DNA from: Candidatus Thorarchaeota archaeon
GTDB lineage: Archaea; Asgardarchaeota; Thorarchaeia; Thorarchaeales; Thorarchaeaceae
NCBI GenBank assembly: GCA_020348985.1
Contig: CP070761.1
Span: 2,283,950-2,300,209, forward strand
Length of the DNA: 16,260 nt
Direction: 5' to 3'
A program made the translations under genes and the position numbers. This document shows positions 2,218 through 15,364 of this stretch, piece by piece. The stretch's first letter is position 1. Each line of letters starts with the position of its first letter. The notes beneath the pieces are model-generated. The model was not told the DNA's origin and did no database searches. It was given only the letters and a program-made list of their open reading frames with translations.

Positions 2218-3540
2218 CTATTCTGATTCTGATGCTCCTTCTATCATTTCAGTCTCAGAAGCCTGTGAGGTGTCTTCTCGAGTCCCCTCTTTCTGCCAAA
2301 TAGTTGACAACCTTGAAGTGATTCTGGTTGCCATTGAAGCTACCAGTCTCGCAGGCAACACGGCCAATCCAAACAGAACTCGCGATATCTTGTCTACCAT
2401 TGTTGCCTTCTCTGGATATCCGATGTATGCCAACGTGTGCTCTTTCAGAATGTCCTCCAGAGCAACAGCAAAAGCTTCCTTGGCCAAATTGGAGACATCT
2501 ACTCCGCGAAACACTTCACTTCTGCTGAAGTCCTTTCTGTCCATCACGCTCTTCCACTTCAGGTACTTCGCCTTCTCAAGAACATCTGTCAGGCTATAGA
2601 GAAGCTCCCCCATATTTGGAATCAAAGCTCGTTGGACCTCTGTTGGCGTGGGCTCATCTTTAAGATCGGTGTAGATTCTTTGTACCAGCTTCGTCTGTCG
2701 AAAAGCCGGCTTGAACCAAAGAACATACAGCAATCCCTCAATGCTTCGCAATGTGGCCTTGTTCCTTTCTTCAATGTGATCCGGAGTTTTGTCAAGAACT
2801 GCTTCTTTTGCTCTCGACACAGCTCCTCCAGCCAATTCTGTCCATATCCTATCGAGTTCGACTACTGCTTTTGCGTATCTGTAGAATTTGAAATCCAACC
2901 CATCTTCAATGTCTTCGGAACTAAGAAGAACAATGTCCTTAGTTCTGAATGCCCGGTCTCCGCTTGCTAGCGCCCAAAGCACTTCCAGGATGTTCTTCGA
3001 TCCAGGATGACTTTTCGGTATCTCGAGTCGAAGCGCATGATCACCAGGCTGAGCAACCAAGAAGCATGTGTCCAGAATGTCGTCGATGTCCTGAAATCCT
3101 GAAAGCGATGTGGGAAGTAAATCCATGGACCCGTGACCTGTAGTCGACCATACCACCATCTTCCCAGTGGATGTATTCTTCTCAATTATCACGCGCTCCT
3201 TGTCTCCGAGGTGATCGAATTCGTCAAGGGTGCCTTTGCTATAAGCCAGTACAGTGTACACAATGAATCGTTCTCTGTTCTCTTCCAATCCAGGGACTCT
3301 CAGAATGAGTCCTACCGTATCAAGGGGTTCTCCACTCGAGAGCCAGGCTCCTGTCGCCTGATCCCATTCCCATCTATCTCCTAATTCATAGAAGACCTCT
3401 CTTAAAGAGCGCAAGTCCTTTGCATCTCTTGCCTTTCGAAGAGTCTCCTCCTCCCAATCTTTGTAGTCTTTCTCTATCTTGGACATACTCTTCCTTTCTT
3501 TTTCCAACCACTGCTCATCTATCTTGAATCTTGCCTTCAT
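2218..3540 (-). CDS. Hypothetical protein (~440 aa) with a putative Vps62/NPP1(NLP)-like domain and a C-terminal amphipathic helix
   Basis: Long ORF (track start 3615). ATG 3540 is preferred because an AT-rich TTCAATAA box lies ~35 nt upstream. Motifs DHLGDKERVII, WSTTGHG and VAQPGDHAL occur in the order seen in Vps62/NLP proteins. The CDS is confident; the family call is moderate. Confidence 0.75.
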   Translation of the reverse strand: MKARFKIDEQWLEKERKSMSKIEKDYKDWEEETLRKARDAKDLRSLREVFYELGDRWEWDQATGAWLSSGEPLDTVGLILRVPGLEENRERFIVYTVLAYSKGTLDEFDHLGDKERVIIEKNTSTGKMVVWSTTGHGSMDLLPTSLSGFQDIDDILDTCFLVAQPGDHALRLEIPKSHPGSKNILEVLWALASGDRAFRTKDIVLLSSEDIEDGLDFKFYRYAKAVVELDRIWTELAGGAVSRAKEAVLDKTPDHIEERNKATLRSIEGLLYVLWFKPAFRQTKLVQRIYTDLKDEPTPTEVQRALIPNMGELLYSLTDVLEKAKYLKWKSVMDRKDFSRSEVFRGVDVSNLAKEAFAVALEDILKEHTLAYIGYPEKATMVDKISRVLFGLAVLPARLVASMATRITSRLSTIWQKEGTREDTSQASETEMIEGASESE

Positions 3541-3652
3541 TTTTCGGATTTCCTGTAGATACAGAATGCTGTTGCTTATTGAAAGCCCCACTAAGAACCG
3601 CAACCACTGATGCACACTTATGGATATCGTTCACTCCTTCATGGATATGCTC

Positions 3653-4687
3653 CTATCTGACGAATGCCGATGCAGTTTCGCTGAGGGCGCTGACCAACCA
3701 GTCGAGCTGTTCGTCGATCGCAATTGGTTGCACAAACAGAGAGTCCGCTGTCTTGAATTGGAGGAGTGGAGACGGATTTCTGATAGAGACCATCATCCCT
3801 TTGGGTGTCTCATGAGGCTCCACAAACCATCCTTCAGACTTCACCAGCTTCAGAGAATGGATACGCTCGATTAGGCGGGCTGTGAGTTGCTGTGAAGAGG
3901 TCACTGTAATGCTTTCGTATTCTCTAGAAGGAATTCCCATGATGTATCTTATTTCAGTTGACGTATCAGTCTTCGTATCCAGTATTATGTCAAATGCAAT
4001 ATCGAAGAGGATCTTCTTGTTATTCTTCACCAGCCAAATGACAGAAGGATGGCACTTCCCTCTGACCTTGACTTTCAAGAGTCTTCTTGTGCGATTAAGA
4101 ATGAAGAACTCTAACTCCTCGAAATCTTCTAGAAGATGACGGGTGCTAGTGCTCCAATATCCACTCAAGTATACGACTAGTGCCATTCCCGCCAGAATCG
4201 CTACGGATAGCAATGACGAATAAACGGTTCCAAGAATGCTAAGAAGAAAGGCACTAGAGACAGTTGCCCATACCAGAATGACAAACCATGCAAGATCATT
4301 CATATCATCAGTCTTTTCTGGTTCGCCACTGGAAACGGAGCCATATGCTTTCTCGAACGCCCGTGAAATCATCTCTGGATTTGACCTGACTTCTTCCTTC
4401 TTCCAGTTTGAATTGATGTCTGACGGATCTAGCAGAGTGAGCTGCCCTCGCGCCTTCTGACCCAATGAGTGAAATGTTCTTGTAGTTGGCAGACCAACAG
4501 AGACCTGAGCGGCGAAGAACGCAAAAGAGCTTAACATCGGGTCAGGGAGGGCACAGAGAGTATAGAGAATGAATCCATAGAGGAAGAAATCTACTAGCGA
4601 AAGTGCGACCACCTTTGTGTGCATCCAGTTTACTTGAGTCCAGTCCATGACAACGATTTCCTTGCTTGTATCTAGTGGACTCATCAT
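3653..4687 (-). CDS. Hypothetical membrane protein (about 4 TM segments in two hairpins, soluble alpha/beta C-terminal domain)
   Basis: 344-aa ORF with hydrophobic segments at ~aa 26-64 and ~120-165. No recognisable family motif. Confidence 0.8.
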   Translation of the reverse strand: MMSPLDTSKEIVVMDWTQVNWMHTKVVALSLVDFFLYGFILYTLCALPDPMLSSFAFFAAQVSVGLPTTRTFHSLGQKARGQLTLLDPSDINSNWKKEEVRSNPEMISRAFEKAYGSVSSGEPEKTDDMNDLAWFVILVWATVSSAFLLSILGTVYSSLLSVAILAGMALVVYLSGYWSTSTRHLLEDFEELEFFILNRTRRLLKVKVRGKCHPSVIWLVKNNKKILFDIAFDIILDTKTDTSTEIRYIMGIPSREYESITVTSSQQLTARLIERIHSLKLVKSEGWFVEPHETPKGMMVSIRNPSPLLQFKTADSLFVQPIAIDEQLDWLVSALSETASAFVR

Positions 4688-4797: not shown

Positions 4798-5196
4798 TCA
4801 ATCTATGAAGAAGACATCGCCTATGTTCTCTGAGGTGACGACACGTATCCGCATGTCGTCTTCAAGGACGTGAGTGGCGTCTCTCACCTTTACTACGCCA
4901 ATTGCTTCTCCAGCGTAGGCTGCAGCCGCGAAGTCCCCTATTGCCTCGCCAAACTCTGCTAAGACCACTGAAACATTCGAGAATAGCAGCTCTAAGTCTC
5001 TTGGGTTTTGAATGAAGTGCTTCTCCAAATCAGAATCGAGGACGGCAATGTCATCTGCCCCCCATTCCCGCTGCAACTCGTCAGGAGTCCTGACGATGAC
5101 AACCCTGCCCGTGTGTTGCTTTGCCTCTCCCACCGATTCACCTCGTAGAATCGGGAAGATTATGACGTCATCCTCGTTTACCTGCTTCTCCGACAT
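4798..5196 (-). CDS. Stand-alone PEP-utilising enzyme mobile (swivelling phosphohistidine) domain-like protein lacking the catalytic His
   Basis: LRGESVG...TGRVVIVRTPDEL...DDIAVL and VVLAEFGEAIGDFAAAAYAGEAIGVVKVRDATHVLEDDMRIRV align with the family pattern G-x-v-r-v-v...gdIlV...aivteeGglTSHaAivArelgiPavvgv.dat..lkdG..v.vd. Confidence 0.65.
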   Translation of the reverse strand: MSEKQVNEDDVIIFPILRGESVGEAKQHTGRVVIVRTPDELQREWGADDIAVLDSDLEKHFIQNPRDLELLFSNVSVVLAEFGEAIGDFAAAAYAGEAIGVVKVRDATHVLEDDMRIRVVTSENIGDVFFID

Positions 5197-5361
5197 TGGC
5201 AGACCCCATTGGTGTCAAATCTACCTAACAGCGTCCCCACTGTACGTGGCATAGGACTTTAACGTTTCGGGAATTTGCTCTTTTCTCTTCTTGGAATCGT
5301 TGACGAGGTCATCTACCCTATAGCTAATATTGTCCATTGGGTATGACCTCGTTGAAAGACT

Positions 5362-5889
5362 ATGACGGTTTACGAGTTTGAAGGAAGAATTCCCAAGATT
5401 GGAGCGGGAACATATGTCAGTTCCAAAGCATCTGTCATTGGGAATGTCACAATAGGAAGAGAATGCTACGTCGCACCTGGTGCTGTGGTAAAGGGCGACT
5501 ACGGTGAGGTCCGTGTTGGTAATGGCTGCAGCATTCAAGACAATGTCATCATCCATGCCCGTCCAGATGAGCTTACTACTATTGGGAATGACGTGACATT
5601 GGGACACGGATGCATTGTTCACAATGCAACAGTCAAGGATGATGCCGTCATAGGTATGGGTGCGATTGTTTCGGACTACGCAACAGTAGGCATTTGGTCT
5701 TTGATAGGAGAAGGTGCAGTTGTCAGGCAACATTTTGAGGTTCCTGATGGCAAGATTGCCGTTGGCGTCCCGGCCAAGGTGATAGCAGATGTTATGAACC
5801 ATCACAAGGAAGAACTCACAAAGTTCAAAGGAATCTATCGAAGTCTTGCCGCAAGATATCCAACTGGGCTGAAGGAAATCTCTGAATAG
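5362..5889 (+). CDS. Gamma-carbonic anhydrase family protein (YrdA/CaiE/PaaY-like, left-handed beta-helix)
   Basis: Hexapeptide repeats (VIGNVTIG, TTIGNDVTLG, IGMGAIV), three metal-ligand His (IIH, GH, VH), and GVPAKV followed by a C-terminal helix. Confidence 0.93.
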   Translation: MTVYEFEGRIPKIGAGTYVSSKASVIGNVTIGRECYVAPGAVVKGDYGEVRVGNGCSIQDNVIIHARPDELTTIGNDVTLGHGCIVHNATVKDDAVIGMGAIVSDYATVGIWSLIGEGAVVRQHFEVPDGKIAVGVPAKVIADVMNHHKEELTKFKGIYRSLAARYPTGLKEISE

Positions 5890-5937: not shown

Positions 5938-6696
5938 TTAGACGAGTGATACTAGCCTGTCCCTATTGAACCTCGTCCAAGCAAGCACCCATGTGACACC
6001 CATGAGTGCCAGAGCTATCAGGAGAGTAACAAAGTTGGCAAACCACTGGGCGTTGAGATCTGGAACACCTGTCCCAATTCCTGCGAAGGAACCAAACATC
6101 GGGATGAACATGATTAGTACGATTCCTCCCACCATCTGATAGGCTTCATAGACTCGAGATACTCTCCCACTGACGATTATCATTACTGAAACCGTCGCCA
6201 GGATCATGACCGGAGAGACAACACAAATCAAGAACAAGCCAGGAAGGTCAGGAATGAGAACTGGAGCTCTTCCTGCAAGCACAATTAATACATTCGAGCC
6301 CAACGACGTTATCACTGTGACTCCAGCAAGAATCGCCATGCTAGGTAGGAATGCACTCAATGTCTTCCCGAGCAGCAGCTCGGTGTCTGTTAGCGGAGTG
6401 CAGAGGATTGGTTCCAGAGTGTTCTGTTCTCGTTCGCCAACAAAGGAATTGGCAGAAATCATGGCTGCAGGGATGATGGTAAAAACGGCCAACATGGCTG
6501 ACAAAGTAGGTAATAGATAGCCCATTATGAGGTCAAAAGATGAAGGATCAAGGAATATCGGGACGCCAATCATAGCTATGCCCATTATAGGTCCCAATGC
6601 AGGCAAAGCGAGAATGCCATACTTTACGAACTTGACTTTCAACGCCATTCTCAGGTCTGCCCTGGCAACAATCATTGACTTCGTCAATACCATCAT
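5938..6696 (-). CDS. ABC-2 type transporter permease
   Basis: About 6 TM segments; motif SFVGEREQNTLEPILCTPLTDTELLLGK matches ABC-2 GEKExxTLExLLxxP...LGK. ATGA overlap with the upstream ATPase stop; RBS GGGAGGTGA at 6708-6700. Confidence 0.92.
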   Translation of the reverse strand: MMVLTKSMIVARADLRMALKVKFVKYGILALPALGPIMGIAMIGVPIFLDPSSFDLIMGYLLPTLSAMLAVFTIIPAAMISANSFVGEREQNTLEPILCTPLTDTELLLGKTLSAFLPSMAILAGVTVITSLGSNVLIVLAGRAPVLIPDLPGLFLICVVSPVMILATVSVMIIVSGRVSRVYEAYQMVGGIVLIMFIPMFGSFAGIGTGVPDLNAQWFANFVTLLIALALMGVTWVLAWTRFNRDRLVSLV

Positions 6697-7643
6697 CTGT
6701 CACCTCCCAGAATCACCTCTAGATAGAGGTCTTCAAGCGACATTTCCTCCTCAGCAAACTCAACGACTCTGACTCCCGCGTCAAGGAGTTGGCTTAGTAG
6801 GGTTGGGTTGTTATCGTACGGGTCTCTGATAGTTGCGAGTAATGTGTCAGCCTCAACTGTGACTTCTTCAACGAATTCCGCCGACCTGAGTATTTGCTCC
6901 GCATCTCCCAGGTTGCTGGCAATCCTGAGTCTATACTGCTCCTTTGCTTGAAGCTTTTCTCTCAACTCGTTTGTCTTCCCGTGGAGGATGATCTTCCCGT
7001 TATCGATGATTGCAATCGCGTCACATATCCGCTGAACTTCAGCTAAGTTGTGTGAATTGATGAAAAATGTTTGATTGTACTTCTCGGAAAGGCTGAGAAT
7101 GAGTTCACGTACTCTTTTCGCTGCAATCGGATCAAGCGCAGCTGTAGGCTCATCGAGCAAGAGAACCGAGGGCTCATGAAGAATTGCTCTACAAAGTGCA
7201 AGTCTCTGTCTATTCCCTGTGCTCAGTTCTCCAGCTTTGTCATCCTTCCTCTCCCACAAATCCATGAAGCTCAGAAGTTCCTCGATTCGCCCAGGAATCT
7301 CTTCTAAGGGAACATCGTACAGGCGGGCGAAGTACTCAAGATTCTCGTATGCTGACATCGTTGGATAGAGAGTATGGTTCCCTTCCTCAGGAAGCACGCC
7401 TGTCACTTCTCGCACCTTTACTGGACTCTCAATGATGTCGAAACCTGCCACAGTTGCGGTACCCCTTACTGGTTTGAGGAGAGTACAAAGCAACCTTATG
7501 GTTGTTGATTTTCCTGCGCCATTGGGGCCCAATAGTCCAAAGATGGATCCTTCTGGAACATCAAGACTCATCTCATTTACTGCTATAATATCTCCAAAGT
7601 TCTTTGTAAGTCCCGAAATGATTACTTCTCTGCTAGATTCCAC
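6693..7643 (-). CDS. ABC transporter ATP-binding protein (DrrA/NatA-like exporter), GTG start
   Basis: Walker A GPNGAGKS, signature LSTGNRQR, Walker B LLLDEP, H-loop NSHNL, and C-terminal SLEDLY motif. Confidence 0.95.
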   Translation of the reverse strand: MESSREVIISGLTKNFGDIIAVNEMSLDVPEGSIFGLLGPNGAGKSTTIRLLCTLLKPVRGTATVAGFDIIESPVKVREVTGVLPEEGNHTLYPTMSAYENLEYFARLYDVPLEEIPGRIEELLSFMDLWERKDDKAGELSTGNRQRLALCRAILHEPSVLLLDEPTAALDPIAAKRVRELILSLSEKYNQTFFINSHNLAEVQRICDAIAIIDNGKIILHGKTNELREKLQAKEQYRLRIASNLGDAEQILRSAEFVEEVTVEADTLLATIRDPYDNNPTLLSQLLDAGVRVVEFAEEEMSLEDLYLEVILGGDR

Positions 7644-7758: not shown

Positions 7759-8010
7759 CTAAACTGAAATCAGTTTTGCCACGACAGCTGTTGTTGTCTC
7801 CTTTATGCCAGGTATCTTGTGTATACGCTTTGCTGTAATCTCGTAGAGATCTTCTAGAGTTGGCACTTCCAGCAGGACGACAATATCGTAGTCGCCAGTT
7901 GTGATTGCAATTCTTGTTGCCTCGACGATACTTCGAAGCTGCTCAACCACATCATCAGTGTGTCCAATCTCTATGTCCATCAGAATATACGCTTGAATTG
8001 AATTTCCCAT
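7759..8010 (-). CDS. Stand-alone Lrp/AsnC ligand-binding (RAM) domain protein
   Basis: 83 aa with AYILM...ITTGDYDIVV...IHKIPGIKETTTAVV pattern and no HTH. RBS GGTGA overlaps the upstream stop codon. Confidence 0.92.
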   Translation of the reverse strand: MGNSIQAYILMDIEIGHTDDVVEQLRSIVEATRIAITTGDYDIVVLLEVPTLEDLYEITAKRIHKIPGIKETTTAVVAKLISV

Positions 8011-8020
8011 CTTTAATCCC

Positions 8021-9280
8021 TCACCTGAAGTCCTTGATTATGACCTGTGTTTCTATCTCCTCTATGCCAGGAATCTGTTGAATCCTTTTCAAGACCAAGT
8101 TTCTTGTTTTCGCTAAGCTTCTGCTCTTTATGCTGAGTATGTAGTCATGCTTTCCTGCAATCGCCGCCGCAGTTTCAACTCCCTTGACATCAAAGAGGTC
8201 TGGCAGCAAATCTCCAGTGTGTGGCTTCACTTTAATGAAGACAAACGATCTAACGTCCGCAGCCTGTAGCGCCACTATGCCGATCAGCACCAGCAGAATC
8301 CCGAGAACTCTTAGAATCCAAATGAAGGTGTCTCCGGAAACTTGACCAAACGCTCCAGGGACAATCCAGTTCCCAATCAGTGTTAAAGGAATTCCGACGA
8401 GAACAGATACAGCAGAAAGTGAGTTGACAATCGACATGGATCCTTTACCCAACGCGCGGACATACAAGACCATCGAAACGAAGATTGTCAATGATGATCC
8501 AGCCATCAGCCAAAAGAGTGGAGCGAAGTATTCGGACATGACGTTCCAAGTAGCCAGTCCCATGAATGGGAGCATCGTCACTGACATTGACAGATTGAGG
8601 AAAAACAAGGACCATAGTCGCATGTTAAGGGCATCGACTCTTAGGCCTTTCCGAATCTCGTATCTCTTTGTCTTCCTTTGGAAGTAGGTGAACAAAGCCG
8701 AAGAGACATTCATTGGTCCCAATACAATTGCCAGAGCGAGAATGTCGAAACCTCCAGGTGTCACGCCTACAAGTAGAACACCAAAGAGAATGGAGACGAT
8801 ACACTGTACTTCAACAATCGTCGGTGTATCCTTTTCTGCCACTAGGTCTCCTAGTAGCAGGTAGATTATGACTAGCTGGCCATAAGGCAAGACCGTAGTT
8901 ATGTTGGTTTGCTCTACTAGAAAGTAATAGAAGAATGTCGAAATGCCCGCGACGAGTCCTCCACAGACCAAGTAAAGCATCGGTCTACGTGGGAGCAATC
9001 TCATCCTCTCGAAGTCTGGATCAAGGTGATAGCCCAGCTTTCGAGTCCTACCGTCGCTTGATATTCTAATGCTAAGAGTGATCAAGAGAATGAATGATAT
9101 ACCAAAGCTAACCCACTGAGCCATGAACCCATATGTGATTGGATCGATGTCGGTCAAGTTGAGGGCCACTACGTCGAATGCCACTGAAAAGGAGCGCGCG
9201 ATTCCAGAGCCGATTGCAAGTATGTAGAACAAGACCGCAGCGGATAGCTTGCCTACTGGCCTCTGATTCCTGCTACTCAT
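8021..9280 (-). CDS. EamA/DMT-superfamily transporter fused to a C-terminal Lrp/AsnC (RAM) domain
   Basis: About 10 hydrophobic segments in two repeats with DMT motifs (LYVRALGKGSMSIVNSL; LGILLVLIGIVAL). Residues 342-419 (nt 8257-8021) are RAM-like: SFVFIKV...IAGKHDYIL...IQQIPGIEEIETQVI. RBS AGGTGA at 9295-9290. Confidence 0.85.
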   Translation of the reverse strand: MSSRNQRPVGKLSAAVLFYILAIGSGIARSFSVAFDVVALNLTDIDPITYGFMAQWVSFGISFILLITLSIRISSDGRTRKLGYHLDPDFERMRLLPRRPMLYLVCGGLVAGISTFFYYFLVEQTNITTVLPYGQLVIIYLLLGDLVAEKDTPTIVEVQCIVSILFGVLLVGVTPGGFDILALAIVLGPMNVSSALFTYFQRKTKRYEIRKGLRVDALNMRLWSLFFLNLSMSVTMLPFMGLATWNVMSEYFAPLFWLMAGSSLTIFVSMVLYVRALGKGSMSIVNSLSAVSVLVGIPLTLIGNWIVPGAFGQVSGDTFIWILRVLGILLVLIGIVALQAADVRSFVFIKVKPHTGDLLPDLFDVKGVETAAAIAGKHDYILSIKSRSLAKTRNLVLKRIQQIPGIEEIETQVIIKDFR

Positions 9281-9374
9281 GATGACATCTCACCTTTGAC
9301 CAACAAGTAGTTCTAATGACTGAGCAAATCTCCAGTCACTTATCTTGCTTTGTGTTCCCTTCATGCTCGGAATC

Positions 9375-10310
9375 TTAGGACTCTGAATTGTCCTGCGGCT
9401 TCTTTCTGTCGTCTGCAACTTCTCTCTGAGCTAGGATGAATTCGTCGAATGTCAGCCGCTTCCCTGATTGAAGCTTTTCAACTGCTGCATCTACTCTTTC
9501 TTGCTCATCAGCACGCTGTTTGGCTCTCTTCTCAGTTCTAATAGACTCTCGAGATTCGGACTCATACTTTCGTACTTTGCCATAGATGTCGTCAATATCT
9601 GTGCGTAGCGCTTTGAGCTTGGTCTCTCCTTCTTTGACCTTCTTCAGCCATTCAACGAAGTTCTTGTGAGCCGTATCCGCCTGCCGCTTGAACTCCTCAA
9701 GTTGTGGCCGAATCCGTACTACCTCCTGATGATGAACCTGGGACTGCTCAGACAACTCGAGCACCTTGTGATGAATCTCCCCGGCTTCCTCCTTCAGCCT
9801 TCGCGCCATTCTTCTGAGCTCACTTATCCGATCCTGCTTCTCTTTTTCCATTCCGATTTTGACCAGCTTGGCTTCAATCTTGGCTACTTCTTCAACCAGA
9901 GATCTCTCCTCGTCCATCGTCAGCTTCTCTGTCTGCTGACGCCACTCAAGCTCCTCCACGCGCCTCATCATTCTTCGCTGATCTGTTGAGGGACTTCCTA
10001 CAATCTTTCCCCTAAGCTCACGGATCTCCTCATAGACGCTCTTGAGCTGGGCATGAATGGCACCACGCCTGTTCTTTGCCTCGCGAATTTCGGTGTTTAT
10101 CTTGTCTCTCGCCACACGCTCAGCCTTCACCGATTCAATGAGGCCCCTAACCTCCTTATTGTGCTCATCGCGAATGGTCTTGTACTCACGCATCTTGTCT
10201 CTATCCCTGCGAAGGACTTCAAGCTCATCTCTCGCTTGGACCTTCAATTCACGCAATCGTGACCTTAGAAACTCGATGTTCTCTGGCGTTGCTTCTACTG
10301 CTTCTGTCAA
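9375..10310 (-). CDS. Archaeal coiled-coil protein (COG1340-like), TTG start
   Basis: E/K/R-rich heptads along the full length, with family-like motifs RDEHNKEV, RDKIN, LEWRQQTEKLTMDEERSLVEEV, ADTAHKNF and EKLQSGKRLTFDEF. Confidence 0.85.
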   Translation of the reverse strand: MTEAVEATPENIEFLRSRLRELKVQARDELEVLRRDRDKMREYKTIRDEHNKEVRGLIESVKAERVARDKINTEIREAKNRRGAIHAQLKSVYEEIRELRGKIVGSPSTDQRRMMRRVEELEWRQQTEKLTMDEERSLVEEVAKIEAKLVKIGMEKEKQDRISELRRMARRLKEEAGEIHHKVLELSEQSQVHHQEVVRIRPQLEEFKRQADTAHKNFVEWLKKVKEGETKLKALRTDIDDIYGKVRKYESESRESIRTEKRAKQRADEQERVDAAVEKLQSGKRLTFDEFILAQREVADDRKKPQDNSES

Positions 10311-10446: not shown

Positions 10447-11346
10447 CTAGCCTGAGTATAGCGCTTCAGCTATTCTGATGGCAATGTCAAATTCTGTCAC
10501 TTCTTGTATTCCAAACCATCCTGGAGTCGCATTGACTTCCAATAGCCACAGTTCTCCATTCTTATCGGGAATCACGTCAACGCCCACAATCCTTCCCTTG
10601 ACAGAATTGGCAGCTCTGACTGCCAGATCATCAACGTCGATGTCATTCGGTCTTGGTTTACCCCCCGAGTGTACGTTGGTTACAATCCCCTTAGTAGCAA
10701 CGCGTTGCATTGATGCTTCAACCTTTCCATCAATAACAAGCGCCCGAATGTCAAAGCCTGGTCCTTCTATAAACTCCTGAAGTAGGAACGCTCCCTTGCC
10801 GAACATCTGACTGTGGAATTTGAGGTAATCATAGATGTTCTCCAGATCGAAGTCAGTCGAAATAAGTTGCACACCTAGCCCTCCGAAGCCAGTTATAGGT
10901 TTCAAGACACAAGGCCAATGATTTCGGATGAAATCTGCAGCAACCTCTATCGACTCTGTAATCAAAGTTTCAGGAACTGGAAGACCAGCTCCAATCAGCT
11001 TTCGCATTGTTTCAGCTTTGTTTCTCATAACAAGGATGGAGGAAACGGAATTCACGATGTCTACTCCCTTCTCAGCGAGAGCTGACAGAAGCCCTACACG
11101 GCTAAAGAAGGACCCAATATCGTGCCCTCCCAACTCTAGAACGTAGACCCGGTCTAGCCGACTGATATCGTGACCATTAAGAAGTATTGAATGATTCTCT
11201 TTCGATCCTCTCCTATGAACACGCCAAGGGATTATTCTCTGCACATCTACGTTGAGCTTCGAGAATGCAGCCTCAAGGCGCTCCACACGCCATGAATTGG
11301 GGTCTCCCGCAAACAGACCTACACTTGTTCCATTTTTCGGAGCCAA
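10447..11346 (-). CDS. RimK-family ATP-grasp alpha-L-glutamate ligase (MptN-like), TTG start
   Basis: GLPVPET, VLKPITGFGGLGV, LLQEFI, DIRALV, TNVHSGG, GVDVI and LEVNATPGW motifs. RBS GGTGA 6 nt before the TTG. Confidence 0.9.
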   Translation of the reverse strand: MAPKNGTSVGLFAGDPNSWRVERLEAAFSKLNVDVQRIIPWRVHRRGSKENHSILLNGHDISRLDRVYVLELGGHDIGSFFSRVGLLSALAEKGVDIVNSVSSILVMRNKAETMRKLIGAGLPVPETLITESIEVAADFIRNHWPCVLKPITGFGGLGVQLISTDFDLENIYDYLKFHSQMFGKGAFLLQEFIEGPGFDIRALVIDGKVEASMQRVATKGIVTNVHSGGKPRPNDIDVDDLAVRAANSVKGRIVGVDVIPDKNGELWLLEVNATPGWFGIQEVTEFDIAIRIAEALYSG

Positions 11347-11822: not shown

Positions 11823-13655
11823 CTAGTCCACTGTAAGTGTCTTCGATAGATTTCTTGGTAGGTCCGGATCTATGCAGAGATCGATAGAGAGAAAGTAACT
11901 AAGCAGTTGCAGTGGTATCACATCAAGAATCGGATTGATCAGAGGGTCAGACTTTGGTACTGCCAGATAGTCTGTTTCCGATTCAACATAAGGTCCAAGC
12001 TTGTCCTCTCTTTCGCCCACTATTATTGTCCGCCCCCCTCTGCAGCTGACCTCGTTGATGTGATTGATCATCATCCAGCTGTCTTCAGTCGTAGTGACAA
12101 AGATGACTGGATAGTTGTCAGTTACAATCGATAGAGGTCCATGCTTGAATTCGCTGGAGTACATGCCTTCGCAGTGGTTGTAGCAGATTTCCTTGATTTT
12201 CCAGGCCCCTTCTCTCGCAACACCGTCTGTGAATCCGTATCCCAAGCAGTAGAGGTCCTTAACGTCCGTCATTGTAGATGCTAAGTTCTTTGCCAGAATC
12301 CCAGTCCTATCGATTGTTTGCTGAGTGAGCTTAGGTAGATCGTTTTGTAGTGTCTCCAAGATTCGCCTCGATTCACCAGCGCTCAGAGTCCCGTTTCGCA
12401 ATCCCAGCATGGCAGAAAGATACGCGAATATGATTGTCTGGGCGAAGTATGTCTTTGTGGCAGGCACGCTCACTTCATACCCGCAGCCCATTGGAACATA
12501 GGAGTCTGAATTGAACATAAGCGTACTCCCAATGACGTTTAGAATGCCAAGAGTCTTGCCAAGATTGTCCCTTCGGACAAGGTTCAGAACATTGAGAACA
12601 TCCTTGGTCTCTCCGCTTTGCGACACGAGTATGCAAAGACTATCCTCGTCTAGAGATTTGCCGTACATTGGTTCGAACTGTCCGCCTATAGAAGGGATAA
12701 TTGGTGTTCCGGCAAGACGATTGAAGTAGTAGCTCCCAACGATGCCTGCGTTATATGAAGAACCACAAGCAACCAGATAGACTCGAGAGGCGTCTTCAAT
12801 CATGCTAAGCCATTCTTCGTTCCTCCCGCCTTCCAGGAGCCCCATCAAATCTTTGGCGACGTTTGGTTGCTCATAAATCTCTTTGAGCATGAAATGAGGA
12901 TAGCCTCCCTTCTCGGCCGCATTCAAATCTACACTTGACAGTTCGGGAACTCGGTCCAACTTCTTCCCATCTTCGATACGGTACACTTTCACTTCATCGG
13001 GTGTCAGATGCAACATCTCTCCATCTTGGAGATAGATGACACTGCGAGTTACAGGAAGGATTGACGGTAGGTCGCTCGAGACAATCGTCTCGCTTTCGCC
13101 AACTCCTGTCACAAGCGAAGAGCCCATCTTGACAGCGAAGATTTCCTGTGCATCTGCTCTCCCAATTGCATAGGCATAGGCACCTTTGAGGTCATCAACT
13201 GATTTCTGAATAGACTCAAGCATGTCGCCTGTCTGCTCGTAGTATTTGTCCACGGCGTGTACACAGAGTTCGCCGTCATTCTCCGACCTAACGATATGTC
13301 CTGTCTCTATAAGCTCACTTCTATATTCGTGGAAGTTGTGTATATTGCCGTTGTGGGCACCGTAGAAGACTTCTTCACAGCCGAAGTGAGGTTGAGCATT
13401 GACTCTCGTGGGTGCTCCATAGGTGGCCCAACGAAGCTGCGTAATCCCCCTGTCTCCCAGCATTTCTGAAAGGCCTAACCTATCGTTGACCTCATCGATT
13501 GTTCCAACATCCTTTCTGAGGTCCACTCGTCCATTGCGGACTGCCGCGACGCCAACTGAATCATATCCTCTGTAGGTAAGCTTACGTCCACACTCTACCA
13601 AGATTTTGCCAATGTCAGATCTACTCAGGCTCACAATCCCAGTAATCCCGCACAA
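11823..13655 (-). CDS. glmS: Glutamine--fructose-6-phosphate aminotransferase (isomerizing), divergent; TTG start
   Basis: N-terminal MCGI, YRGYDSVG, RWAT, HNG, HFMLKEIYEQP, ACGSSY, SQSGET, KIKEI, KHGP and PRNLSKTLTVD motifs; 610 aa. Confidence 0.93.
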   Translation of the reverse strand: MCGITGIVSLSRSDIGKILVECGRKLTYRGYDSVGVAAVRNGRVDLRKDVGTIDEVNDRLGLSEMLGDRGITQLRWATYGAPTRVNAQPHFGCEEVFYGAHNGNIHNFHEYRSELIETGHIVRSENDGELCVHAVDKYYEQTGDMLESIQKSVDDLKGAYAYAIGRADAQEIFAVKMGSSLVTGVGESETIVSSDLPSILPVTRSVIYLQDGEMLHLTPDEVKVYRIEDGKKLDRVPELSSVDLNAAEKGGYPHFMLKEIYEQPNVAKDLMGLLEGGRNEEWLSMIEDASRVYLVACGSSYNAGIVGSYYFNRLAGTPIIPSIGGQFEPMYGKSLDEDSLCILVSQSGETKDVLNVLNLVRRDNLGKTLGILNVIGSTLMFNSDSYVPMGCGYEVSVPATKTYFAQTIIFAYLSAMLGLRNGTLSAGESRRILETLQNDLPKLTQQTIDRTGILAKNLASTMTDVKDLYCLGYGFTDGVAREGAWKIKEICYNHCEGMYSSEFKHGPLSIVTDNYPVIFVTTTEDSWMMINHINEVSCRGGRTIIVGEREDKLGPYVESETDYLAVPKSDPLINPILDVIPLQLLSYFLSIDLCIDPDLPRNLSKTLTVD

Positions 13656-13824: not shown

Positions 13825-14532
13825 ATGGGTAAACAGAAACGACTGGCATTGCTGCTTCACCCATTCAGACGTGAGCTTTACCAGGTTCTATGTCAGAACC
13901 CGGGAACATATCTTCTAGAGCTAGTGGACATGTTAGAGTCACCTCTGGGTACCCTAACTTGGCACCTTCGAATTCTCGAACGAGAAGGTCTCGTGAAATC
14001 TATCAAGTTCGCTGGGAAGAGGCTTTACTATCCGAGAATGTTGCGGTCGCAAGAAGCCGAGATGGCCTACTTGACAATGAGAAGTGAGACAGCACAGAAA
14101 ATCTTCCTCTATGTCCTGAACAATCAGGGCTGCTATCAAGAGCAGATGGCTGAGAATCTAGGAGTACATCATGACACTGTCCGATGGCACGTTTCTCGGA
14201 TGGAAGAAGTGGGTCTCCTTCGCGTTTTAAGGGAAGGGCGAATGAAACGCCACTATCTAGCCAACCTCGGTGAATCATTGTTGGCTGGAAGTCTGAATGT
14301 TGTAACCGAAGCCTATGTAATGTTCTTAATGGAGAAACTCGAGGATGGCTGCCTCAATCCCGAGATTAGGGAAAGGACCGATGAAGGGGTCACGATCAGA
14401 ATCGACTGCCCGGAGAAAGGACAGGATTGCTTCATAACAATCAGATTGAAGGAATGGGAATTCGGCAAGTTCGATGAAGAAATCTCGGAGCCAGATGTGA
14501 TTGCTAAAGAAGTGAAGGCTCAAGAAACCTAG
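13825..14532 (+). CDS. Tandem winged helix-turn-helix transcriptional regulator (ArsR-like, COG3398-type)
   Basis: Two repeats, RRELYQVLCQNPG...GTLTWHLRILEREGLV and AQKIFLYVLNNQG...DTVRWHVSRMEEVGLL, each followed by a wing (GKRLYY / GRMKRHY), plus a ~75-aa C-terminal extension. Confidence 0.88.
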   Translation: MGKQKRLALLLHPFRRELYQVLCQNPGTYLLELVDMLESPLGTLTWHLRILEREGLVKSIKFAGKRLYYPRMLRSQEAEMAYLTMRSETAQKIFLYVLNNQGCYQEQMAENLGVHHDTVRWHVSRMEEVGLLRVLREGRMKRHYLANLGESLLAGSLNVVTEAYVMFLMEKLEDGCLNPEIRERTDEGVTIRIDCPEKGQDCFITIRLKEWEFGKFDEEISEPDVIAKEVKAQET

Positions 14533-15245
14533 ATGCCTGCATCAAGAAAGTCCTTGATACGTTGGACCACTCTTGCTGATGCGTCTCCTCTTGCTATTAC
14601 GACAAGCAGTCGAGCGTCGTCAACCCTAGCAATAATGAGCCTGACCTCGTTTGTATTCATGACTAGCCAATCAGTGGTCTGTGAAAGTGTAAGTCCATTG
14701 GCAAACATTGAACCTGCAAGTGCGGCTGCTTCTATCTGATTTCTAAATCCTACTGATCCTACCGGCATCCCCTCTGATGTAATCAGCATGGCTTGGCTAA
14801 TCTCTGGTATTGCCTTGACAATCTTACCTAGAATTGTTTCCTCACGAAACTCCGGACTACTTCCCATCAGGAGCTCCACTCTAGTAGCCAATGACTGCAA
14901 TACGGGAAGATTGTCATCAATTACCTTTTCGAAGCCATAGTGCTTCTCGAAAACCACCACAAGCTGATAGTTGTCTTGAATCAGAGAAAGAATCAGGTGC
15001 TTGTCAGTTGAATGGTGATATTGCATAGGCCGCTCCGAACCCACTTGAGTAAGCATACTTGCGCCGGCCCACGTTATGGCGGCTGCGACCGTCGAGAGAA
15101 TGTGAGGACTGATCTCCTCTTTGCGCGCCACTGCAGCCACAACCACACCCTCCTTTGTCGATAAAACAACATGATTCACATATTCGTGAATGTCCAAGAC
15201 ATCCTGCAGGAGTCCTGTCACTTGTGTTAGTGTTTCACCGGCCAT
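14529..15245 (-). CDS. Tandem (double) Roadblock/LC7 (MglB/LAMTOR-like) domain protein
   Basis: Two domains with the helix-beta-(S/T)xEG-beta-helix pattern: VNHVVLSTKEGVVVA...ILSTVAAAI and ISQAMLITSEGMPVG...AAALAGSMF, each ending in an LVV strand plus helix. The track start is 15314; ATG 15245 is preferred because TATAAATA lies at 15299-15292. The stop overlaps the wHTH stop (CTAG). Confidence 0.8.
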   Translation of the reverse strand: MAGETLTQVTGLLQDVLDIHEYVNHVVLSTKEGVVVAAVARKEEISPHILSTVAAAITWAGASMLTQVGSERPMQYHHSTDKHLILSLIQDNYQLVVVFEKHYGFEKVIDDNLPVLQSLATRVELLMGSSPEFREETILGKIVKAIPEISQAMLITSEGMPVGSVGFRNQIEAAALAGSMFANGLTLSQTTDWLVMNTNEVRLIIARVDDARLLVVIARGDASARVVQRIKDFLDAGI

Positions 15246-15291
15246 AGGGGAATCCCACAATGGTTGTTGTGTTCTCAATGTGCGTTCCGCG

Positions 15292-15364
15292 TATTTATAG
15301 CTCATGTTCACCATCGGTTTAGGGATTGTTCAAGTGTCCTTTCTTCGAGCAACAGGTTTATATC
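15292..15364. promoter_or_regulatory. Divergent TATA boxes (TATAAATA on - strand at 15299-15292; TTTATATC on + strand at 15357-15364)
   Basis: Consensus-like archaeal TATA boxes about 45 nt upstream of the Roadblock (15245) and BMP (15408) starts. Confidence 0.5.

Follow-up and report, generated by a model that had tools for sequence, protein, structure and literature searches.

Control of membrane transport by ligand-binding domains, either fused to the transporter or soluble, is well known for the RCK, CBS, STAS, and PII families. In MthK, KtrAB/TrkAH, and GlnK-AmtB, tethered and/or soluble regulatory subunits control a membrane transport protein. The RAM domain of Lrp/AsnC transcription regulators also occurs as a stand-alone protein, the physiological significance of which is unclear according to a review of the family (PMC2995911). 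The published hetero-octamer that FL11 forms with the stand-alone RAM protein DM1 indicates that such a protein can enter mixed assemblies (PMC2995911). In Pseudomonas aeruginosa, an Lrp/AsnC regulator, PA2577, represses the gene encoding the EamA-like protein PA2576 (PMC8707732). Here, we describe a two-gene locus in a 16,260-nucleotide stretch of a “Candidatus Thorarchaeota” archaeon genome (GenBank assembly GCA_020348985.1, contig CP070761.1, positions 2,283,950 to 2,300,209 of the forward strand; the whole stretch is referred to as the window), in which the gene for a DMT-fold membrane transporter carrying a C-terminal RAM domain (the fusion) adjoins a gene for a free RAM domain. The source genome is assembled as one contig of 3.16 Mb, and close homologs are named Thorarchaeota in database records.

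Our analysis shows that the small protein serves the fusion transporter as a dedicated, RAM-only subunit. We consider it somewhat probable (about 55%) that the two proteins form one membrane complex in which a metabolite-sensing RAM heterodimer switches transport. All of the parts are from known families (DMT fold, RAM domain, and stand-alone RAM proteins), and the feature they make up is real, strongly conserved, and apparently undescribed. Descriptions of a transporter bearing a RAM domain, of a transporter-dedicated stand-alone RAM, or of a DMT-RAM fusion were absent from the literature searched, which left most subscription journals uncovered, in agreement with an earlier reading of the DNA letters (the original prediction) that knew of no characterized system with this architecture. 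Nor did that literature yield a description of DMT carriers regulated by a ligand-binding domain, or of regulation via RAM domains.

A conserved gene pair in Asgard and other archaea

The pair and its parts lie on the minus strand of the window as follows.

8021..9280, (-): fusion gene, stop codon included, encoding a 419-aa protein with a DMT-fold transporter and a C-terminal RAM domain (open reading frame [ORF], Pfam, and AlphaFold2 [AF2])
8261..9241, (-): predicted ten-helix membrane domain, fusion aa 14-340 (AF2 helices, positive-inside topology, DMT fold matches, and conservation)
8024..8254, (-): predicted cytoplasmic fused RAM domain, aa 343-419 (PF01037 at E 3.3e-9, secondary structure, and column counts)
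7759..8010, (-): free RAM gene, encoding an 83-aa RAM-only protein (ORF and PF01037)
8021..8026, (-): Shine-Dalgarno-like AGGTGA, 10 nt before the ATG of the free RAM gene and overlapping the TGA stop of the fusion (sequence reading)
9290..9295, (-): second, identical AGGTGA, 9 nt before the ATG of the fusion gene (sequence reading)

The free RAM gene follows the fusion gene after a gap of 10 nt. Thus, both ORFs lie where the original prediction had placed them, and its claim that the ribosome-binding site of the free RAM gene overlaps the preceding stop codon holds as well, since the AGGTGA contains the TGA of the fusion. As it had also stated, the free RAM lacks a helix-turn-helix (HTH): Pfam gives PF01037 for this protein and no HTH family in either protein. 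Because the defining HTH is absent, neither protein is an Lrp/AsnC transcription regulator, and the public annotation of the membrane protein as “Lrp/AsnC family transcriptional regulator” is misleading and, for the fusion, wrong.

All of the 84 loci that could be assessed have a free RAM gene next to the fusion gene and on its strand (49 from Asgard archaea, 2 from Woesearchaeota, and 33 from a clade of metagenomic sequences including P0141, here the P0141 clade). The Asgard sample consists of 50 loci, the fiftieth of which ends at a contig end just past the fusion gene. Spacing between the two genes ranges from -44 to +42 nt in 48 of the 49 Asgard loci; as an exception, locus L049 has an in-frame stop within the fusion gene. 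The two Woesearchaeota loci have the free gene upstream, overlapping by 4 nt. In the P0141 clade it was found in each of the 33 metagenome loci that cover the upstream region, and the overlap is again 4 nt wherever this could be measured (30/30). Gene order is inverted between lineages: the free gene is downstream in the family of the window (Thorarchaeia) and upstream in every other lineage. Such recurrence places the pair far beyond chance, and the conservation of adjacency in spite of a flipped order, across lineages that are 25 to 40% identical, is strong evidence that the products work together. The original prediction had proposed a test of gene-pair conservation, and synteny turned out to be decisively on its side.

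When 108 RAM sequences were placed in a quick tree, the fused and the free ones separated into two groups (Shimodaira-Hasegawa-like approximate likelihood ratio test, 93), each of which broadly mirrors the genome families, pointing to an old split followed by coinheritance. Full-length relatives of the fusion, including the RAM tail, are present in 72 of the 151 Asgard genomes searched and in 13 of 27 families. Among these, the fusion is found in 24/26 genomes of family f1, 18/19 of f12, 9/13 of f5, 5/5 of f17, 5/7 of f20, and 3/4 of f3; it was not found in family f9 (0/25) or in several other families searched. A profile search of 1.84 billion cluster representatives returned only about 27 full-length fusion clusters. 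The names behind them are Thor-, Odin-, Baldr-, Heimdall-, Hod-, and Hermodarchaeota, to which labels of single metagenome-assembled genomes (MAGs) add Woesearchaeota, Nanohaloarchaea, “Thermoprotei,” and “Thermoplasmatota.” The last two labels, of which “Thermoplasmatota” refers to the P0141 clade, are those of single, unverified MAG records. In the DPANN phylum to which the Woesearchaeota hit L051 belongs, only 2 of the 201 genomes searched contain the fusion. The P0141 clade fusions show at most 41% identity to any sampled Asgard fusion. The next tier of matches consists of proteins of 320 to 370 aa that comprise the membrane domain alone and have no Pfam family; where such RAM-less relatives are named, they are bacterial (Katanobacteria/WWE3 and cyanobacteria). 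The module thus appears to be old and widespread in archaea, being found in Asgard lineages, in DPANN, and in the clade labeled Thermoplasmatota.

A few loci deviate from the common layout. Locus L041 (genome G092, family f25) has a free RAM gene on each side of the fusion gene (2756-2995, 3010-4314, and 4302-4553), a layout that stands between those with the free gene upstream and those with it downstream, and both of its free RAM copies are strongly acidic (net charges of -10 and -8). At G114:C21:10727-12008, the fusion gene comes in two pieces, one for aa 6-312 and the other for aa 318-418, and in L049 (G095, 2985-4211) the in-frame stop is a TAA; these apparently broken fusion genes could be pseudogenes or assembly errors.

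Membrane domain and RAM domains

We modeled the fusion of the window with AF2 from an alignment of 24 diverse orthologs (pLDDT 80.5, pTM 0.77). The model has ten long transmembrane (TM) helices, the first at residues 14-43 and the last at 318-340. The N-terminus of the fusion and its loops 2-3, 6-7, and 8-9 are rich in Lys and Arg, and by this positive-inside pattern both termini and the RAM domain are predicted to be cytoplasmic. Solved DMT carriers were matched across all ten helices of the fusion model by Foldseek and VIA-align. They include LicB (7paf), which gives TMt 0.82 against the window fusion and Z 29 over 276/278 residues with a root mean square deviation (rmsd) of 2.9 against the model of an ortholog, L021 (VIA-align), and, likewise against the L021 model, YddG (5i20, Z 22.8) and TPT (5y78, Z 22.6); Vrg4 (5oge), SLC35B1, and PfCRT are further fold matches of the membrane domain. 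Modeling thus shows the large protein as a predicted 10-TM secondary carrier of the DMT fold with both termini in the cytoplasm, which bears out the original description of a DMT-type protein of about ten helices ending in a RAM domain.

Sequence-based classification of the membrane domain is less straightforward. EamA (PF00892) matches the N-terminal half only (aa 19-171), at 23 bits and below the cut-off of 28.2 bits. Of the two families that the original prediction had named, PF01037 was recovered above its cut-off in both proteins and PF00892 was not. A relative, P0153, scores 38 bits with EamA, above the cut-off, and P0063 carries a precomputed PF00892 match. No internal repeat of 5+5 helices is detectable when the profiles of the N-terminal and C-terminal halves are compared by hhalign (probability 0.6%); such a repeat is implied by the structural match alone. 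Since EamA stays below the cut-off here, the DMT assignment rests on the fold, the weak EamA signal, and the P0153 hit.

We compared 24 diverse fusions with 13 RAM-less sister proteins. The two sets share D36 in helix 1, which is invariant, as well as an LGxxLDPxF loop, W223, a PGxFG loop, G327, and G334. Conserved in the fusions only are P153 and E157 (in an EKDxPT motif leading from loop 4-5 into helix 5), R221, Y118, and Y140, a YxRALxxGKMS stretch running from helix 8 into loop 8-9, and a DxLNxRLW motif of the membrane domain. Loops 4-5 and 8-9, which bear fusion-specific motifs, are predicted to be cytoplasmic, on the same side as the RAM pair, and these motifs may form a docking or transmission surface for it. 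As a further speculation, D36 and E157, which are embedded in the membrane, may point to coupling with protons or cations. In one ortholog, L035 (G123, family f27; 2693-4099), cytoplasmic loop 2-3 contains some 40 inserted residues directly ahead of the conserved LGxxLDPxF, which brings the fusion to a length of 468 aa.

Both RAM domains score above the PF01037 cut-off of 25 bits (fusion aa 348-416, E 3.3e-9, 36.9 bits; free RAM aa 11-78, E 3.6e-13, 49.6 bits). Pfam gives no RCK or TrkA domain in either protein, and the cytoplasmic domain is a RAM by sequence and fold. In the AF2 model, the fused RAM has the secondary structure beta-alpha-beta-beta-alpha-beta at residues 343-415, and in the L021 model the RAM fold matches DM1, STS042, AsnC, and FL11 at rmsd values of 0.9 to 2.0. 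Because the fused RAM begins 2 to 3 residues after helix 10, there is no linker between TM10 and RAM.

Roles of individual residues in both RAMs were assigned by reference to the structure of Grp with glutamine (PMC2504300), in which the amino group of the ligand is bound by D102 and the G99 loop of one subunit and the carboxylate by T132 and T134 from a subunit of the neighboring dimer (PMC2504300). The free RAM of the window has all four of the canonical residues that hold the ligand backbone (G39, D42, T72, and T74). The fused RAM keeps G376 and D379; the first Thr of the T-x-T motif is replaced by Ile409, and the second, T411, is kept. The same distribution holds for other genomes. In free RAMs of Asgard archaea and Woesearchaeota, G39 and D42 are each present in 52/52 sequences, T72 in 46/52, and T74 in 51/52, and all four residues are conserved in 100% of the 31 sequences of the P0141 set (30 pairs and the window reference). 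Fused RAMs of Asgard archaea and Woesearchaeota have G376 in 50/51 and D379 in 46/51 cases, with Ile, Val, or Met at the first Thr position and the second Thr kept in 42/51; those of the P0141 clade keep the Gly and, in 29/30 cases, the Asp, with Tyr or Phe at the first Thr position and Trp at the second. Thus, judged from aligned sequences, loss of the predicted T-x-T half-site in the fused RAM and its retention in the free RAM is a systematic asymmetry. Fused RAMs also have near-invariant residues of their own, R387 and K391. The contrast drawn in the original prediction, TTGDYD in the free and AGKHD in the fused RAM, is correct as to the motifs; the difference between T-G-x-x-D and A-G-x-x-D is secondary, because the Gly and the Asp are conserved in both subunits.

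A second contrast, between an acidic free and a basic fused RAM, applies to the window (net charges of -6 and +3) and to all 51 Asgard and Woesearchaeota pairs, with mean net charges of -4.7 and +4.7. It does not extend to the P0141 clade, where free RAMs have a mean net charge of +1.9 and the fused RAM is the more positive one in only 23/30 pairs. The three other stand-alone RAMs of the source genome are likewise acidic. Charge complementarity as a general basis of pairing was rejected, given that P0141 free RAMs are often basic and that the other stand-alone RAMs of the genome are acidic too. We also dropped a possible like-charge repulsion from strand 1 (K350/K352 versus D12/E14), as FL11, which is homodimeric, has K-V-K at the corresponding positions.

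The stand-alone RAM genes of the source genome other than that of the window are located at 789611-789856, 917236-917460, and 2225337-2225612 (81, 74, and 91 aa). Of full-length Lrp-type regulators there are only two in this genome (148 and 161 aa). It also encodes a 321-aa protein with two RAM-like domains, which may be siroheme decarboxylase-like.

Proposed sensing mechanism and its alternatives

For a joint model of the two proteins, we used L021 (56% identical to the window fusion), in which both genes are in the same frame. The TAG codons were read as Gln, giving a single read-through chain of fusion, 18-residue spacer, and free RAM. The alignment was block structured: 9 rows were paired, 39 covered the membrane domain, and 36 covered the free RAM; two MAFFT alignments of mixed paired and unpaired rows had placed fused and free RAMs on each other's columns and were discarded. 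The AF2 model of this chain has a pLDDT of 91.9 and a pTM of 0.84 (83 to 96 in the fused RAM, about 96 in the free RAM, and low values in the spacer alone). As a unit, its two RAMs can be superposed by VIA-align onto both RAM-like domains of the NirDL tandem (4ch7), with Z 16.8 and an rmsd of 2.8 over 164 residues. They also fit tandem alpha+beta-barrel proteins of a single chain (5f9p_B, at Z 12 for residues 342-521 of the model), and single RAM proteins reach about Z 10.5 over some 80 residues at most. Given this joint superposition on NirDL, the model packs the free against the fused RAM in the manner of a canonical RAM dimer. It shows such a heterodimer to be structurally comfortable, which speaks for compatibility rather than preference. 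The idea of the original prediction that fused and free RAMs co-assemble is supported to this extent, as a plausible arrangement with canonical dimer geometry in the modeled chain and a precedent in FL11-DM1. Its further suggestions, of a closed ligand-sensing ring, of gated export, and of Lrp regulators sequestered at the membrane, stay at the level of conjecture.

The mechanism that we propose is as follows. The free RAM would pair with the tethered RAM at the cytoplasmic face as a canonical Lrp/AsnC-type dimer, and the ligand, a small metabolite and most likely either an amino acid or something closely derived from one, would bind at RAM interfaces, to which each subunit would contribute its conserved G-x-x-D loop and the free subunit its T-x-T strand as well. 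As ligand sites of Lrp/AsnC proteins lie between dimers, binding would alter either the association of RAM dimers of neighboring carriers or the seating of the RAMs on the carrier. This change would be relayed through the linker-less TM10 junction and the cytoplasmic loops with EKDxPT and RALxxGKMS, turning transport on or off. The direction would most likely be export of a surplus cytoplasmic metabolite, and the scheme would be a post-translational, protein-level counterpart of the bacterial circuits made of an Lrp regulator and an exporter gene. A more elaborate picture, which we offer only tentatively, is a membrane-anchored RAM assembly in which tethered RAMs would provide G-x-x-D half-sites and the contact with the transporter, and free RAMs would provide T-x-T half-sites. 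A metabolite bound between RAM dimers of neighboring transporters might then assemble or rearrange the complex and thereby gate transport.

Several points weigh against the proposal of a metabolite-sensing heterodimer that switches transport. (i) With part or all of T-x-T absent from the fused RAM, half of the potential sites, as read from sequence, would be noncanonical. (ii) The joint model has both RAMs tethered in one chain, so that it demonstrates compatibility and not preference, and the fused-RAM columns of its alignment rest on only 9 related sequences. Furthermore, canonical Lrp/AsnC ligand sites need two dimers, and the predicted structure is that of one RAM dimer. (iii) As regards the ligand, DM1 also responds to metabolites of other kinds than amino acids, for example 2-oxoglutarate (PMC2995911). 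(iv) As regards the substrate, the TM domain has no sequence match to solved structures at E ≤ 1, and no neighbor besides the free RAM is conserved across families among the Asgard loci compared, which gives no clue to what is transported. The general statement in the original prediction that EamA proteins export amino acids is therefore not transferable to this protein, which has no sequence match to a solved DMT carrier and whose nearest RAM-less relatives are uncharacterized bacterial proteins.

Three other explanations were considered. The membrane protein might act as a transceptor or signal relay that senses by flux or occupancy and holds or releases the free RAM, which would join Lrp/AsnC regulators and thereby affect transcription, by analogy with sequestration of GlnK by AmtB. 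FL11-DM1 hetero-octamers demonstrate that stand-alone RAMs can join regulator assemblies, and the free subunit is soluble with a complete ligand site; however, gene overlap or tight spacing suggests 1:1 co-production and not a diffusible pool, and the free RAMs are a lineage of their own, co-inherited with the fusion. Two full-length Lrp-type proteins are available as targets in the source genome, but the three other stand-alone RAMs encoded there could serve them, and the pair persists in Woesearchaeota genomes of about 0.9 to 1.0 Mb that have very few Lrp-type proteins. We regard such a relay as improbable. A comparably small chance is given to homodimerization of fused RAMs, by which two transporters would be joined and the free RAM would be a competing cap or modulator and not an obligate partner. 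Both N-termini of Lrp dimers face the same side, which makes a parallel transporter dimer geometrically possible, and the homodimer-forming FL11 shares the K-V-K pattern of strand 1 with the fused RAM. Nevertheless, AF2 sets the free RAM on the dimer face of the fused RAM with high confidence, and the consistently tight coupling of the genes fits a stoichiometric subunit.

Least likely of all, in our view, is a purely structural or stabilizing role of the RAM pair, in folding, membrane insertion, or anchoring, without ligand control. The degenerate T-x-T site of the fused RAM would be in line with this, as would the fact that some members of the Lrp family are predicted not to bind amino acids (PMC2995911). 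Yet both subunits keep G-x-x-D, and the free one keeps T-x-T, with hardly an exception across lineages that are 25 to 40% identical, and a pure scaffold has no reason to preserve ligand residues.

Neighboring genes and comparison with known systems

A gene for a DUF7121 coiled-coil protein (window 9375-10310, minus strand; 311 aa, E 1.9e-14, with weak SMC-like matches) lies directly upstream of the fusion gene, and genes for an ABC ATPase, the C-terminal domain of which is DrrA-like, and an ABC-2 permease (5938-7643, minus strand, with a 4-nt overlap) lie directly downstream of the free RAM gene. These genes flank the pair in families f1 and f2 only. The DUF7121 neighbor varies in length between genomes from about 305 to 478 aa, and synteny of the ABC ATPase and ABC-2 permease with the pair is limited to Thorarchaeia families. 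Upstream of this block, a RimK-like ATP-grasp ligase is encoded at 10447-11346 and a GlmS-type glutamine amidotransferase/SIS protein at 11823-13655 (both minus strand); the RimK-like gene is near the pair in several f1 genomes only. Also on the minus strand, at 14529-15314, is the gene for a 261-aa protein with a Roadblock/LC7 domain (E 8.9e-7), which in Asgard archaea attracts interest as an element of GTPase regulation of a eukaryote-like type. For four consecutive ORFs at 2218-3615, 3653-4687, 4798-5196, and 5221-5805 (minus strand; 465, 344, 132, and 194 aa), Pfam gives no family at E ≤ 0.001.

Stand-alone RAM proteins are common in archaea, and here one of them has a fixed and identifiable partner. 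If the tentative picture of a membrane-anchored RAM assembly is true, the pair would represent a new class of ligand-gated secondary carrier, and stand-alone RAM proteins would for the first time have a physiological role assigned to them. If confirmed, the proposed switch would mean that the amino-acid sensor of Lrp has been wired directly onto a carrier, allowing control within seconds as opposed to control by transcription. The module is compact, with two genes and about 500 residues, and occurs in many Asgard lineages, which suits it to heterologous expression, binding screens, and cryo-electron microscopy.

Among described proteins, the free subunit most resembles DM1 of Pyrococcus horikoshii (2e1a/2z4p and 2cvi) and STS042 of Sulfolobus tokodaii (2zbc), which are stand-alone RAMs (“demi-FFRPs”) of about 80 aa. 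They are its best matches by sequence (2zbc, E 5.5e-10; 2e1a, E 7.5e-9) and, in the L021 model, by fold (2e1a, rmsd 0.9 over 75 residues; 2zbc, rmsd 1.2 over 79), and they have the same G-x-x-D and T-x-T ligand residues. However, the partner of DM1 in the FL11 assembly is a DNA-binding regulator, whereas that of the free subunit is a membrane transporter encoded by a genome-fixed adjacent, often overlapping gene. The solved DMT carriers (LicB, YddG, TPT, Vrg4, SLC35B1, and PfCRT) share the ten-helix fold and the topology with N- and C-termini inside, but their identity to the fusion is only about 10 to 15%, and neither a RAM domain nor a soluble RAM partner accompanies any of them.

The PA2577/PA2576 circuit links the same two parts, a RAM ligand sensor and a DMT/EamA-type carrier. 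In that case, the RAM acts through an HTH on transcription, whereas the fusion has no HTH and its RAM is part of the transporter; control would therefore be direct and post-translational. NirDL siroheme decarboxylase (4ch7/4czc), one chain with two Lrp/AsnC-like modules, shares the dimer geometry alone and differs in being a soluble enzyme with HTH-like domains. With the MthK RCK ring, KtrAB/TrkAH, and GlnK-AmtB, the pair would share a logic, by analogy only: a cytoplasmic ligand-binding oligomer of tethered or free subunits controls transport. Those systems are built on the RCK Rossmann fold or on PII and not on RAM, and the pair described here differs further in that the free subunit is encoded by its own gene, in contrast to the internal start of the MthK type, and that the cargo of the regulatory domains is a DMT carrier rather than a channel.

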